Source of the DNA: Escherichia phage DK-13
DNA: 64,000 nt
Sequence record: MT611523.1
Direction: 5' to 3' (one strand)
Each line of letters starts with the position of its first letter. The first letter of the stretch is position 1. Positions 11,166 through 64,000 of this stretch are shown here, piece after piece. The position numbers and the translations under genes are program-made. Under the pieces are notes generated by a model. It saw only the letters and a program-made list of their open reading frames with translations, was not told the origin of the DNA and made no database searches.

Positions 11166-11333
11166 TTATACTGTAGGTTTATCGTCTTTGTTCTTACGCT
11201 TTTTTGATGGGATTTGTTCAGGGCCTTTATTGACAACTGCCCCGGAAGTGGTACCTGTTGCGATATTAGTTGGGTTTCCACCTGCATCACCGGCAACCAT
11301 ATTTTCGTTGATAAAATCTTTGAATGTTTTCAT
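11166..11333 (-). CDS. small protein with capsid-targeting-like N-terminus (55 aa)
   Basis: MKTFKDFINE followed by I-x-E resembles the T4 internal-protein CTS (MKTYQEFIAE); exact TATAAATA 17 nt upstream. Confidence 0.4.
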   Translation of the reverse strand: MKTFKDFINENMVAGDAGGNPTNIATGTTSGAVVNKGPEQIPSKKRKNKDDKPTV

Positions 11334-11349
11334 AACACCCCCTTTCCGC

Positions 11350-11357
11350 TATTTATA
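11350..11357 (-). promoter_or_regulatory. T4-type late promoter TATAAATA
   Basis: exact TATAAATA on minus strand upstream of ORF 11166-11333. Confidence 0.45.
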
Positions 11358-59931: not shown

Positions 59932-60442
59932 TAAAACGATTAAGCTTACGTTTCCGTTTACGACCCTCTAATGTATACTCAGCCGCCAAATCAAGAAGCT
60001 CATCTTTATCATAATTTTTAATATCAGTATAAGTTGGGCGGCGGTCAACCATTCCAAAGTGGTCACCATTTTCCAACATCAAATAACACACCAAATGGTC
60101 ATCATCGTCCGCATTAATAAGCTGCTTATAATCACTTGGTTCATTTAACGCATACACAGAATAACTCAGCCCAGCGAATTCCACTCGTTGAATACCCAGA
60201 TTTACGTCAATAATTTCCAAGGCATCTGCAAAAGAAAGGTCTTCAGCTAAAGCAAAAATAAAAGGCAATTTGGTAGTATCGCCGCGACTTGTTGTTCTTC
60301 TTAAGAAATCATTGGAATAGCCCAAGTCGCGGCGGATTCTATAAAGAACTGTGTTAGTTTCAGTGGCAAGACCACTACCGCCAAACCATTCCACATTTGA
60401 TAAAAGATTATCATATAAAGTCATAATTTTCTCCTCTCCCAA
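59870..60442 (-). CDS. hypothetical protein (190 aa)
   Basis: co-oriented ORF. Confidence 0.45.
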   Translation of the reverse strand: MGEEKIMTLYDNLLSNVEWFGGSGLATETNTVLYRIRRDLGYSNDFLRRTTSRGDTTKLPFIFALAEDLSFADALEIIDVNLGIQRVEFAGLSYSVYALNEPSDYKQLINADDDDHLVCYLMLENGDHFGMVDRRPTYTDIKNYDKDELLDLAAEYTLEGRKRKRKLNRFIAECREYAKGVQNANVISAK

Positions 60443-60466
60443 TTAGGGGGCTTTGCCCCCTTTATC

Positions 60467-61060
60467 TTACTTAAGTGAATTAATGTATTCTTCAATGTCA
60501 GCGGACGTGGTATCCACACCAACCTGTGGGCCTTTGAAGGTTTCAACACGCATCAGAGTGTCTTCAATATCAATCTTAGTCAATGCAGCGATTTCAACAA
60601 CATCATCTGCAGTCGCAATACCCAGGGCAGATACCTTACGGGTTTCGCGGATGTATTCCAGTTTAACAGCTAGTTCCTGACGAGAATCATCCAACTCTTT
60701 AACTTTCAATTTAATTTCATTACGCATTTCAACATAATCATCTGCCTTCTTACGAAGTTGTTTAGCAGTACGACGATACAGGAGACCCAGTTTAGCATGG
60801 ACCTGGACATCCGCACCATCAGCAATCAGTTTGCGGATTTCACGCTCTTTTGAAGCGGCGAGTTGGTCTTTTTCATTCGCTAACTCACGGATGCGTTTTT
60901 CTTCATTAACCGACTTAACGTGGGCGGTCTGGAGCTCAGTAATCTTGTCAATCAGGGTAGACGCTGCTTGAGTATATTGGTCTTCAATAGACAGATTTTT
61001 TGTCATTGCAGTACCCAGTTTGGAGCGGATGAATTCAACAAGTTTCTTTAAAGTATTCAT
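60467..61060 (-). CDS. coiled-coil protein, possibly PspA/IM30-like (197 aa)
   Basis: continuous heptad-rich helical sequence of PspA-like length. Confidence 0.3.
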
Positions 61061-61126
61061 GGTATTTCCTTCAGTTGGTTAATATTTTATTATCCAATGT
61101 TTTATTGTGTAACTCAGTATGGAATC

Positions 61127-61155
61127 ATTATGCCTTAAAGCAGGGGGCTTGTATA
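61127..61155 (-). promoter_or_regulatory. early promoter with class-B leader; -35 in hairpin loop
   Basis: -35 TATACA (61150-61155) inside the GGGGG...CCCCC hairpin, 17-nt spacer, -10 CATAAT. Confidence 0.5.
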
Positions 61156-61167
61156 CCCCCTTTTGAA

Positions 61168-61611
61168 TTAAATTTCAAATTCTTTGCGGAAGTTGGAAGC
61201 ATAAGACTGAACTGATGCTTTGTTGAATCCAAACTCACGCACAATCATATCAATAACAGCTCTGCGAGCAGCACCATTAGACATATTAACAGTTTTGAAC
61301 ATATCATAGCATAAATCTTTGTTGCTCATACCGGAGCGTTTAGGTGCCTTACGTTCAGCTTTTGGTTCAGTCTTAGGAGTAGGTTTAACTTCTGGTTTAA
61401 CCTGTCCATCATTCAGACCTTTAAAAATTTTACCTGCCAGAGTTGCCAGTTTAGCAGCTTCGCCACGAGTGATACCAAATACTGCCGGGTTAAATGAAAT
61501 ACCTTCAGCTGTCAGACGTTTGAAGAACATACGTGCGGCGGATTGTGCTTCAGCTTCAGAAGAGTTGTTTAATGCCAGTTTAATGTACTTAACCAGTTTT
61601 GAAGTTTTCAT
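61168..61611 (-). CDS. hypothetical protein (147 aa), paralogous C-terminal domain
   Basis: C-terminal block NGAARRAVIDMIV...VQSYASNFRK shared with ORF 62064-62489. Confidence 0.45.
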   Translation of the reverse strand: MKTSKLVKYIKLALNNSSEAEAQSAARMFFKRLTAEGISFNPAVFGITRGEAAKLATLAGKIFKGLNDGQVKPEVKPTPKTEPKAERKAPKRSGMSNKDLCYDMFKTVNMSNGAARRAVIDMIVREFGFNKASVQSYASNFRKEFEI

Positions 61612-61653
61612 TTTATTATCCCGTTTGTTTATTTGGTAACTCAGTATGGAATC

Positions 61654-61682
61654 ATTATGTCTTAGTTAAATTCCAAAGTACA
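61654..61682 (-). promoter_or_regulatory. early promoter with class-B leader
   Basis: -35 TGTACT (61677-61682), 17-nt spacer, -10 CATAAT. Confidence 0.45.
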
Positions 61683-61684
61683 CA

Positions 61685-61981
61685 TTAATTTTCAGAAGTT
61701 GGGAAATAAACTTCAAAGTCATACATGTTTACTACCGCAGACGCGATTGCCTGGTACTGCATACCTAAGAAAGTTTTCTTATTCTTGCGCCACAAGTTAA
61801 CCATTTCTGTTTTGATGCATGCCAGGGAATAGTTGGATGCAGGATACTGTTTGATGATTGCAACAACTTCTTCAGAAGCAGTTTCACACAATTCATTCAG
61901 TTGAGCTTCAATTTTAGCAGAAATGATTGCTTTGTTTTCTTCTTGAGCTTGGGTAGCGTGCCATGCAGGTGCGTTAAACAT
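61685..61981 (-). CDS. hypothetical protein (98 aa)
   Basis: co-oriented ORF with class-B promoter. Confidence 0.45.
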   Translation of the reverse strand: MFNAPAWHATQAQEENKAIISAKIEAQLNELCETASEEVVAIIKQYPASNYSLACIKTEMVNLWRKNKKTFLGMQYQAIASAVVNMYDFEVYFPTSEN

Positions 61982-62022
61982 TTTATTCTCCAGTGTTTTA
62001 TTTGGTAACTCAGTATGGGATA

Positions 62023-62051
62023 ATTATACACTATCCCACCTGGAAGTAAAA
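62023..62051 (-). promoter_or_regulatory. early promoter with class-B leader
   Basis: -35 TTTTAC (62046-62051), 17-nt spacer, -10 TATAAT (62023-62028). Confidence 0.45.
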
Positions 62052-62063
62052 CACTTTTCTCAA

Positions 62064-62489
62064 TTATTTTTGAGCTTTGCGGAAGTTGGAAGCATAAGAC
62101 TGAACAACAGTCTTTTTGATATCATGGGTGTTAACCAGAACATCAATCAGGGCGCGGCGAGCTGCACCATCTGCCATATCAATTTCTGCAAATGCCTGGA
62201 AGCAAATGTCGCGGGCGTTACCAGATTTAGACTGGATTTTTTCTTCTTTAACTTCTTCAATTGGGAATTCAATCATTTCAGCTTGGATTAATTCAATGAT
62301 AGATTCTTTTGACTGTTTGGTGTTTACCTTCAGTTCAGAATTAAGGGACTTGGCGATGGCAACAATCTGGGTTGAAGTCAGATGAATAAGTGCATCTTCA
62401 CGAATGCAGATTTCACATACTTCGTCAGCAACCATTTTGTTGGTGATGCGGGTAACAGAGAATGCAGAGGTCAGGGTCAGAAAGTTCAT
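62064..62489 (-). CDS. hypothetical protein (about 141 aa), paralogous C-terminal domain
   Basis: start at MNFLTL (ORF-track start 62570 overlaps the promoter -35); C-terminal DGAARRALIDVLV...VQSYASNFRK. Confidence 0.45.
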   Translation of the reverse strand: MNFLTLTSAFSVTRITNKMVADEVCEICIREDALIHLTSTQIVAIAKSLNSELKVNTKQSKESIIELIQAEMIEFPIEEVKEEKIQSKSGNARDICFQAFAEIDMADGAARRALIDVLVNTHDIKKTVVQSYASNFRKAQK

Positions 62490-62540
62490 TTTATTTCTCC
62501 AAAGTTTTGTTTGATTCAGTGTGTAACTCAGTATGGAATC

Positions 62541-62569
62541 ATTATGCATCCAGTCAATTCGGATGTACA
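62541..62569 (-). promoter_or_regulatory. early promoter with class-B leader
   Basis: -35 TGTACA (62564-62569), 17-nt spacer, -10 CATAAT (62541-62546). Confidence 0.5.
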
Positions 62570-62604
62570 CTACTTTTTGAAGAAAATTTCAAATTTATTC
62601 GGGG

Positions 62605-62629
62605 TATAAAAAAGCCCGCATTGCGGGCT
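62605..62629 (-). terminator. rho-independent terminator
   Basis: GCCCGCA-TT-GCGGGC hairpin followed by TTTTTT on minus strand. Confidence 0.55.
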
Positions 62630-62630
62630 G

Positions 62631-63185
62631 TTAGTTCTTATAAAAGCGGAACGGATTTATATGAAAGGCGAGCATAGCCTTAGGGATTGGTCGGGACAGA
62701 AGACTCTTGAGCTTCCAGCCACAATAAACGCGCAGATAAAAGGTGATTCCACCGACCTTGAGATAAGGAACAGAAGCAAAAACACCCCAGGCATTATCCG
62801 TCCACATAAAGAGCCATCCGTGATGAGCTTTATCCGGGGAGCCGGATTCAACATCAGGATTACCTTTATAATGGAATTCTGAATTGCAATCACGACCGAG
62901 CTTGTGGTAAGCAAAATTGTATGCTTTGTTTCGCCAGAGCCAAGCCACTCGTTGGAAGTAAACACCTAACGGCCATTTTCGGATTTTTGACCAACGCTCG
63001 ATATGACCCCGGTCGCCATCAATCGGATTATCATAAGTCATCATCCAATCAAACCCGAACGGAAGTTTACCAGTCTTTTTATTATGGAACGGAACTACAA
63101 ATGGAGCCAGGATAACGGCCAGAATCATGGAGATAAAATCCAGTGGAACTAACAGAATCCAACTCAAATATTTTAACAGTTTCAT
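62631..63185 (-). CDS. membrane-anchored protein (about 184 aa)
   Basis: start at MKLLKYLSW with N-terminal TM helix; late-like TATAAATC about 20 nt upstream. Confidence 0.45.
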   Translation of the reverse strand: MKLLKYLSWILLVPLDFISMILAVILAPFVVPFHNKKTGKLPFGFDWMMTYDNPIDGDRGHIERWSKIRKWPLGVYFQRVAWLWRNKAYNFAYHKLGRDCNSEFHYKGNPDVESGSPDKAHHGWLFMWTDNAWGVFASVPYLKVGGITFYLRVYCGWKLKSLLSRPIPKAMLAFHINPFRFYKN

Positions 63186-63206
63186 ACGTTTCTCTTTAGT
63201 TGATTT

Positions 63207-63237
63207 ATAAAAAAGCCCCAACCTTTCGGAAGGGGCT
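63207..63237 (-). terminator. rho-independent terminator overlapping a late-like promoter
   Basis: AGCCCC...GGGGCT hairpin followed by TTTTTTATAAATC on minus strand. Confidence 0.45.
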
Positions 63238-63274
63238 ATACCTTGTCGGGGTTCCACCTGCAAGGCAAGTGTTC

Positions 63275-63658
63275 TTATCCGCGAGCGAATGCCATTGCAG
63301 CGCGTTCGTTGGCACGGTCAGTGATGTTCAAGAATTTATCACGAGCGATTTCGATTGGAGCACCAACCCAGTCAGCAGCACCATTACCTGGAGACTGTTT
63401 AGGGCGAACCATATAAGTTGAAACTTTGGAACCGGCTAGTTTGGCACCTGGTGCCGCGGCATTTTTAACGTCTTTAGCTTTGATGCCAAACCCAGTTACG
63501 ATACCCCAAGAAACACCATTAACGGGTTTCTTGAACATAACACGGTCACCAATTGAAACACCGGCTTTTTCTGGAGCCACTAAAGAAAATTTGCCAGCTT
63601 CAGTCAGTACGGATTCGGTGATGGTATTGCGATTTAAAAATTCTGCATATGTAAGCAT
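63275..63658 (-). CDS. internal-protein-like protein with CTS-like N-terminus (127 aa)
   Basis: starts MLTYAEFLNRNTITE (two I/L-x-E sites); exact TATAAATA 32 nt upstream. Confidence 0.45.
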   Translation of the reverse strand: MLTYAEFLNRNTITESVLTEAGKFSLVAPEKAGVSIGDRVMFKKPVNGVSWGIVTGFGIKAKDVKNAAAPGAKLAGSKVSTYMVRPKQSPGNGAADWVGAPIEIARDKFLNITDRANERAAMAFARG

Positions 63659-63689
63659 TTTGTTTTTCCATTATTAGGGTTGTTGTTAA

Positions 63690-63697
63690 TATTTATA
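63690..63697 (-). promoter_or_regulatory. T4-type late promoter TATAAATA
   Basis: exact TATAAATA on minus strand upstream of ORF 63275-63658. Confidence 0.5.
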
Positions 63698-63703
63698 TTC
63701 CAT

Positions 63704-63771
63704 AGTACCGGATGCACCATCCGCTCGGATTTCTCATACTACCGGGCGCACCGCCCGCTCTGGAAAAACTC
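63704..63771. repeat. tandem ~34-nt repeat, each unit carrying a 13-bp palindrome
   Basis: GGATGCACCATCC (63710-63722) and GGGCGCACCGCCC (63744-63756), each followed by GCTC(T)GGA; arms differ but stay complementary. Confidence 0.6.
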
Positions 63772-64000
63772 CGTAAAAGGGTGCGCCGTTTCTGCTGTGA
63801 TATAAGGGGACATCAACAAATCGTAAAGATTTATTAATGTCAGTCCTTAAACAGGGAACATCAGTCCGACGACTTACCGGTAGCGACCCGGTTTCTCATT
63901 CAATTGTAATAGCTAATTTGACTTTAACAACCTTATAATTGGAATCAAGGTCATTGAATTCCATAAAATTTGTTGCTAGTCTGCGAGTCGGGAAACTTAG

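Follow-up and report, generated by a model that had tools for sequence, protein, structure and literature searches.

What two closely spaced palindromes do ahead of a late promoter in a T4-type phage genome, and whether they do it as DNA or as RNA, is the question raised by this locus. The window analysed here, the whole stretch of 64,000 nucleotides from Escherichia phage DK-13 (MT611523.1), is the DNA of a VR20-like Gaprivervirus, a T4-type phage, and the genes around the palindromes are all on its minus strand. The first-pass annotation had described two adjacent units of about 34 nt, each with a 13-bp palindrome centred on CAC, and the sequence is as described. On the plus strand the palindromes are GGATGCACCATCC (63710-63722) and GGGCGCACCGCCC (63744-63756). 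Each extends by one pair to a 6+3+6 arrangement, CGGATGCACCATCCG at 63709-63723 (CGGATG-CAC-CATCCG) and CGGGCGCACCGCCCG at 63743-63757 (CGGGCG-CAC-CGCCCG). Read as minus-strand (sense) RNA, 63743-63757 is hairpin A, CGGGCG-GUG-CGCCCG, with a 6-bp stem, a 3-nt loop and a folding energy of about -11 kcal/mol, and 63709-63723 is hairpin B, CGGAUG-GUG-CAUCCG, of about -8 kcal/mol. Each is carried by a 34-nt repeat unit of the minus strand. Unit A (63730-63763) consists of CCAGAG, hairpin A and GUAGUAUGAGAAA, and unit B (63696-63729) of UCCGAG, hairpin B and GUACUAUGGAAUA; the last 2 nt of unit B lie within the late promoter box. A repeat search recovered the units as a 26-nt direct repeat, 81% identical, at a spacing of 34 nt (63701-63760, plus strand). 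Four of the five differences in the 26-nt core amount to two compensated base pairs, which bears out the earlier remark that the arms differ between the copies and stay complementary.

Single perfect 6+3+6 palindromes are common, with 27 in the 64-kb window, 8 of which have at least four G-C pairs. What sets this locus apart from chance is therefore that two copies stand side by side and in register, their loops and flanks being identical. The motif GAGCGGNNGGTGCNNCCGGTA, with its inner positions left free and up to three mismatches allowed, occurs twice in the window against 0.02 expected, and motif searches at this threshold give just the two adjacent copies. A covariance model built from variants of the 34-nt repeat unit scored unit A at 55.8 bits and unit B at 54.8 bits; at E<=10 it detected no third copy, either in the window or among 19 other T4-like loci. 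Since both kinds of search yield two copies only, a dispersed repeat or MITE is ruled out. The hairpin pair is found at one place per genome in 15 phages. A distant blastn search of phages returned these 15 clade members and nothing further, and scans for divergent relatives (an IMG/VR pattern scan and a metagenome scan) returned only VR20-like DNA and chance matches in G+C-rich coding sequence. The known distribution is one clade, comprising 15 sequenced phages and one metagenomic contig.

In minus-strand sense the hairpin pair lies directly 3' of a homolog of rnaD, the T4 species 2 RNA (63780-63899, minus strand, 88.5% identity to T4 rnaD), and 5' of a T4-type late promoter. The promoter box, TATAAATA at 63690-63697 (minus strand), stands 31 nt before an ATG and is invariant in 15/15 phages. 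The palindromes had been placed upstream of this box, which is correct in the minus-strand sense of all local genes and incorrect on the plus strand. They had also been placed in a non-coding stretch of about 340 nt, and this did not survive: the rnaD homolog occupies 63780-63899, and a conserved 79-aa ORF of the minus strand (VR20 gp146; L001 3647-3886), which runs past the window edge, has its 3' end at 63896-64000. The suggested setting, the tRNA and small-RNA region of T4, was right, the hairpins having rnaD on one side and a late gene on the other, within a cassette that replaces rnaC. Beyond position 64000, tRNA-Arg and tRNA-Met of VR20 start about 155 nt past the window edge, and the hairpins are not related to tRNA.

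The 79-aa ORF sits between tRNA-Arg and rnaD, a pair that is adjacent in T4, and its TGA stop (63898-63896) overlaps the first bases of rnaD. The rnaD homolog is not annotated as an RNA gene in any of the related GenBank records examined. Its closing stem is backed by covariation, and its outer stems covary as well, for example by a U-A to A-U exchange (CUGAUG/CAGCAG versus CUGAAG/CAGCUG). The central hairpin is swapped among relatives for unrelated hairpins of similar size, of at least three types. For the 3' tail ACGGCGCAC, the predicted pairing partner is GUCGUCG, close to the 5' end. On the plus strand, short 41-aa ORFs run across the hairpins and rnaD (63680-63837), and their equivalents appear as hypothetical proteins in some GenBank records (e.g. 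P8 ORF060, M719 WMU95760); these are probably spurious gene calls over RNA elements.

The hairpins belong to a cassette of 506 nt (63274-63779, minus strand) composed of a leader with the hairpins, the late promoter and ORF127; the leader is 121 nt long and holds both hairpins. In the window and its 14 GenBank relatives, which together make up the 15 VR20-like Gaprivervirus phages, this cassette is an exact substitute for rnaC. Its junctions, which follow GGCGCACC and precede AACACTTGCC, were placed by comparison with RZ, SP18, CJ20, T4 and phages without rnaC. The sister phages RZ, SP18 and CJ20 have rnaD, then a T4-like rnaC, then the shared terminator, and in T4 the tRNA-like rnaC begins 6 nt after rnaD. 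Five IMG/VR genomes lack exactly rnaC, with GGCGCACCG joined directly to AACACTTGCC. Among T4-like phages rnaC thus shows three states: it is present, it is missing with exact boundaries, or the ORF127 cassette stands precisely in its place. The comparison covered window 63274-63779 together with L004-L006, L057, L065, L066, L070 and L073, and the flanks of the slot were always GGCGCACC(G) and AACACTTGCC. Fixed junctions across the three states indicate that rnaC is an exchangeable, dispensable module, and this natural series offers isogenic-like phages in which the roles of rnaC and rnaD can be asked. The cassette shares with T4 rnaC (species 1 RNA) its slot between rnaD and the shared terminator, but it has no sequence similarity to rnaC and no tRNA-like T arm or acceptor, and the slot here also holds a protein-coding late gene. 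The intrinsic terminator, GCCCCUUCCGAAAGGUUGGGGC followed by a U run (63209-63236, minus strand), is common with the rnaC-distal terminator of T4; window 63210-63273 matches the sequence and terminator 3' of T4 rnaC. This shared terminator stands after ORF127 only. A scan between the tRNA genes and ORF127 gave no terminator-like site, a weak negative since the same scan missed the known terminator at 63209-63236.

Judged by its substitution pattern, ORF127 (63275-63658, minus strand, 127 aa) is a real and strongly constrained gene: its variable sites among the 15 phages are 44 synonymous and 1 non-synonymous. The first 41 nt show no variation at all, synonymous sites included, so that the conserved leader block extends into the coding region. 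ORF127 belongs to no Pfam or PHROG family, and no homolog beyond the clade was found by tblastn of phages or in a search of 5.8 billion proteins. An AlphaFold model from the single sequence was uninformative (pLDDT 36). The N-terminus, MLTYAEFLNRNTITE/SVLTEA, resembles the capsid-targeting leader of internal head proteins. It aligns with VR20 ip6 and gp281 (MKTYQEFINE), with T4 IPI (MKTFKEF...TITE/A) and with an ORF located behind the terminator in L065 (MKTYNEFLNE/SVLTEA), and residues M1, T3, E6 and F7 are invariant in this alignment. It carries the pattern M-x-T-[YFL]-x-E-F followed by the [LI]-x-E cleavage motif that marks internal head proteins, with TATAAATA upstream. This match makes it plausible that the predicted ORF127 product is a late, packaged protein. 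A second TATAAATA, at 11357-11350, precedes by 16 nt a 55-aa ORF (window 11166-11357, minus strand) with the N-terminus MKTFKDFINEN, another internal-protein-like leader. Nothing like the hairpins was found at the other three TATAAATA sites of the window, and a general theme of hairpins before late promoters is therefore rejected.

Comparison of the 15 phages shows what has been kept in the hairpins. The fourth pair of hairpin A is G-C in 6 phages (CGGGCG/CGCCCG) and A-U in 9 (CGGACG/CGTCCG). That of hairpin B is A-U in 13 phages (CGGATG/CATCCG) and G.U in TH44 and TH40 (CGGGTG/CATCCG), a state that pairs on the minus-strand RNA and is a C.A mismatch on the other strand and a G.T mismatch in DNA. 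The palindromes are present in all 15 phages, and every stem change keeps the pairing. On the minus strand 292/292 pair cells are standard, against 31-55% in slid controls. One pair has changed on both sides, being A-U in 8 distinct rows and G-C in 6. Two single changes lead to G.U, one from A-U in hairpin B and the other from G-C in the closing pair of the P8 Shine-Dalgarno (SD) helix described below. When the paralogous units are compared with each other, two pairs are fully compensated; among all unit variants the fourth pair is A-U, G.U or G-C and the fifth C-G or U-A.

The leader is under purifying selection, and the hairpins preserve their structure on the sense strand. Variable positions number 5/68 in the repeat units and 12/123 among the leader columns, compared with 37/73 at the fourfold-degenerate sites of ORF127 (Fisher 1e-8 and 8e-11 against units and leader, respectively). 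The units are thus about 7-fold less variable than fourfold-degenerate sites 100-400 nt away. Together with the A-U/G-C exchange and the G.U pair that exists on the minus strand only, this low variability favours sense-strand RNA hairpins over a DNA binding site. The symmetric covariation would be left unexplained by one dimeric protein, which would have to bind both GGGCG and GGATG half-sites. The initial proposal of a selected structure, either a protein site or paired RNA hairpins, can accordingly be narrowed: RNA hairpins of the minus strand are favoured, and a dimeric DNA site is disfavoured by the G.U pair and the symmetric covariation. However, the covariation consists of three events in one shallow clade of close relatives, and the support it lends to the pairing is suggestive, not conclusive. 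Within the units, loops and flanks (2/44 variable) are conserved at least as much as stems (3/24), a hint of sequence-specific recognition that lies outside the SD model.

The T4 tRNA region is transcribed before replication. A sense transcript of the equivalent region here would read through the tRNA-Met/tRNA-Arg/ORF/rnaD unit into ORF127, and the two palindromes would fold in it as RNA hairpins. Because they lie upstream of the late promoter, the hairpins would be present in read-through (prereplicative) RNA only, and transcripts started at TATAAATA would lack them. A candidate anti-SD segment lies just 5' of unit A: GUUUUUCCA (63761-63769, minus strand), a perfect 9-nt complement of 63670-63662. 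In read-through RNA it would pair with the SD region of ORF127, UGGAAAAAC (63662-63670, minus strand; ATG at 63658). This SD/anti-SD helix would be the closing stem of a three-way junction, with hairpins A and B as its remaining arms, and the closed junction would hide the ribosome binding site of ORF127. Late transcripts, which would lack the 5' strand, would be translatable. The leader may in this way insulate an internal-protein-like late gene from upstream early/middle expression, as do the leaders of T4 e, soc, 49 and I-TevI. Read-through transcription, the long-range helix in vivo and any contribution of the hairpins to that helix are parts of the model that we infer. Silencing of the late gene by SD sequestration in read-through transcripts is the likeliest role, to which we give real but tentative weight. 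We have fair confidence in the more general conclusion that selection maintains the palindromes as sense-strand RNA hairpins, within a leader that is confined to read-through RNA and would insulate a late gene.

Folding calculations were used to examine the helix. Of 2000 dinucleotide shuffles made from the upstream 85 nt, 0.85% reached a 9-nt complement (p about 0.0085), and a duplex-energy shuffle test of the SD/anti-SD pairing was weak (p about 0.07). For RNAs starting after the rnaD 3' end, RNAfold gave the SD helix a probability of 0.66-0.97, with the SD unpaired at 0.02-0.20; in late transcripts the SD is unpaired with a probability of about 0.5. The helix appears in the minimum free energy structure of 12/15 phages. 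In three phages the SD region has lost 1 nt; a local helix is predicted for them instead, and their SD is unpaired at 0.40. The segment between the hairpins, GAGAAAUCCG (63726-63735, minus strand), is an alternative local partner of 63773-63763 both in the RNAalifold consensus and in the folds. RNAalifold prefers this local helix (63773-63763 with 63735-63726), which extends hairpin A, over the SD helix; among the phages GAGAAAUCCG carries one G.U-compatible and one disruptive change. When the rnaD tail GGCGCACC is included, it pairs with GGUGCGCC of hairpin A, and the probability of the SD helix falls near 0.

The model keeps the SD helix without the hairpins. Its probability, 0.88 in the wild type, is 0.95 when both hairpins are removed, and shuffling of the hairpin segments gives a median of 0.96; a role of the hairpins as helpers of the SD/anti-SD helix is therefore unsupported by the nearest-neighbour model. 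It follows that the selected structure of the hairpins themselves is not explained by the helix.

The closest likeness in working is to the late-gene leaders of T4. In e, soc, 49 and I-TevI, a structure that sequesters the ribosome binding site has its 5' strand upstream of the late promoter (PMC3014915). The arrangement is the same here, TATAAATA lying between the upstream complementary strand and the SD, so that only the longer, read-through RNAs could hide the ribosome binding site; the order is anti-SD at 63769-63761, TATAAATA at 63697-63690, SD at 63670-63662 and ATG at 63658. Unlike the single local stem-loop of the known leaders, the two strands are about 91 nt apart and bracket two covarying hairpins and the promoter. 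A competing local helix is also present, and the case here comes from sequence and folding. The hairpins are a real, selected and local regulatory feature, and they do not constitute a new kind of system. If the SD-sequestration model is true, a late virion-protein gene inside an early stable-RNA operon has brought or acquired its own silencing RNA leader, and the e/soc paradigm would extend to a branched, long-range structure. The scope is narrow, being a single clade.

Alternatively, the tandem G+C-rich stem-loops could act as a transcriptional attenuator or insulator, pausing or terminating polymerase that arrives from the tRNA/rnaD region before it reaches the late promoter. Their part would then be that of the stem-loop in the promoter-early stem-loop (PeSL) cassettes known from T4-type phages (Arbiol et al. 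2010, PMC2839356; Comeau et al. 2014, PMC4122927), or that of the terminator found right next to the late promoter where rnaC is missing. In such rnaC-less phages an intrinsic terminator stands 7 nt before the TATAAATA of an internal-protein-like gene, and hairpin B occupies the equivalent position, 11 nt before TATAAATA. PeSL stem-loops attenuate transcription (PMC2839356), and PeSL-like elements flank the VR20 internal protein genes. The locus also shares with PeSL cassettes a G+C-rich stem-loop and promoter before an ORFan, a hyperplastic region and cassette-like replacement between close relatives. However, the promoter here is late (gp55-type), not sigma-70-like, and there are two tandem stem-loops. 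No sigma-70-like site with the -35/-10 elements of PeSL cassettes was found at the hairpins, and in place of dispersed copies there are two adjacent ones in 64 kb and none in 19 T4-like loci. A motif that is unique in the window cannot act as a repeated recombination linker. As intrinsic terminators the hairpins were rejected: the sequences 3' of them are GUAGUAUG for hairpin A and GUACUAUG for hairpin B, neither with a U run, and the minus-strand scan gave no terminator there. The stems are just 6 bp long, and a genuine terminator is retained downstream of ORF127. We consider attenuation unlikely.

The VR20 internal protein genes were themselves found to be preceded by a near-identical element, GTGTAC..GATGGGATAA..GTATAATTATCCCATC (L001 5500-5560, 5793-5850 and 6126-6180, minus strand). 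It forms a stem-loop enclosing a -10-like TATAAT and resembles the PeSL cassettes of RB49 and phi1.

Equally doubtful is an element for RNA processing or stability, which would protect or define the RNA end after excision of rnaD, or a small stable two-hairpin RNA of about 70-110 nt that replaces rnaC functionally. The hairpins lie exactly where the sister phages have rnaC, the cassette has removed an RNA that in T4 follows rnaD within 6 nt, and conservation is high in the loops and flanks. The final 8 nt of rnaD (GGCGCACC, 63780-63787) are moreover the exact complement of the loop and 3' arm of hairpin A (GGUGCGCC, 63744-63751), and folds of long transcripts favour this pairing over hairpin A. 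Against this, the complementarity is only marginally above chance (p about 0.07-0.09), and the rnaD tail has another predicted role, that of closing the covariation-supported stem of rnaD itself. The pair matches no Rfam family and has no tRNA-like fold, nor is it flanked by a terminator or a known end-forming signal. A bolder version would make the two-hairpin segment a functional RNA in its own right, either a small stable RNA released by processing or a tandem operator recognized by an RNA-binding protein, in the rnaC slot and perhaps coupled to the rnaD 3' end. A switch between three pairings, in which the tail engages hairpin A or the anti-SD engages either the local segment or the SD, would then set the time at which an injected internal protein is expressed. 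This version seems to us improbable.

A double-stranded DNA site is likewise improbable. It would consist of a tandem pair of palindromic operators, bound by a dimeric protein of phage or host, or of a recombination site, next to the late promoter. The palindromic form, the presence of two copies, one per 34 bp, and the strong conservation of non-stem bases would suit such a site. However, the half-sites are unlike between copies and covary symmetrically, the G.T variant of TH44 and TH40 breaks the DNA symmetry while remaining an RNA pair, and the motif is unique in 64 kb. T4 late promoters, which depend on the gp55/gp33/gp45 system, require no upstream activator site.

The absence of any function, with a recent 34-nt tandem duplication whose arms were kept complementary by template-switch correction of quasi-palindromes during replication, a mutational mechanism that Ripley reportedly first proposed for T4, would suit the mere three variable stem sites but has little chance of being right, given units about 7-fold less variable than neutral fourfold-degenerate sites and a G.U state that persists uncorrected in two phages.

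Several other identities were considered and set aside. E. coli REP/BIME elements are also short, G+C-rich, clustered palindromes in untranslated intercistronic RNA, but the copies here are direct and not inverted and the stem is shorter. No blastn match to the hairpins was found in 5,426 complete E. coli genomes (E<=10), and a REP or host origin is rejected on this ground. A tRNA or tRNA relic was excluded: ARAGORN found 0 genes in 60000-64000, and the likeness to the rnaC T arm, judged by eye, is limited to CGGG...CCCGG. Rfam 15 (E<=10) gave four weak matches, none of them at 63696-63771, the best being a terminator-like hairpin at 63207-63259. The RegB endoribonuclease recognizes GGAG with an A-rich tract, GGAGRAYARAA (PMC3014915). 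The GGAG at 63772-63769 is followed by UUUUUCC, which is U-rich and not A-rich, and was rejected as a RegB site. A MotA-type middle promoter was rejected as well. TGCATCC lies 12 nt before TATAAA and agrees with 4/7 positions of the MotA box; unit A has no equivalent, and the pairing would stay unexplained.

A long inverted repeat, 63666-63684 with 63926-63944, is 79% complementary. By a rough estimate about one such repeat is expected by chance, and the 63926-63944 arm lies in an ORF found also in cassette-less phages, so it was discarded. Finally, two neighbouring hypothetical genes, at 61168-61611 and 62064-62489 (both minus strand), have a common C-terminal domain (44% identity over 73 aa, E 1e-18) with the motif GAARRAxID..VQSYASNFRK, and they appear to be paralogs.
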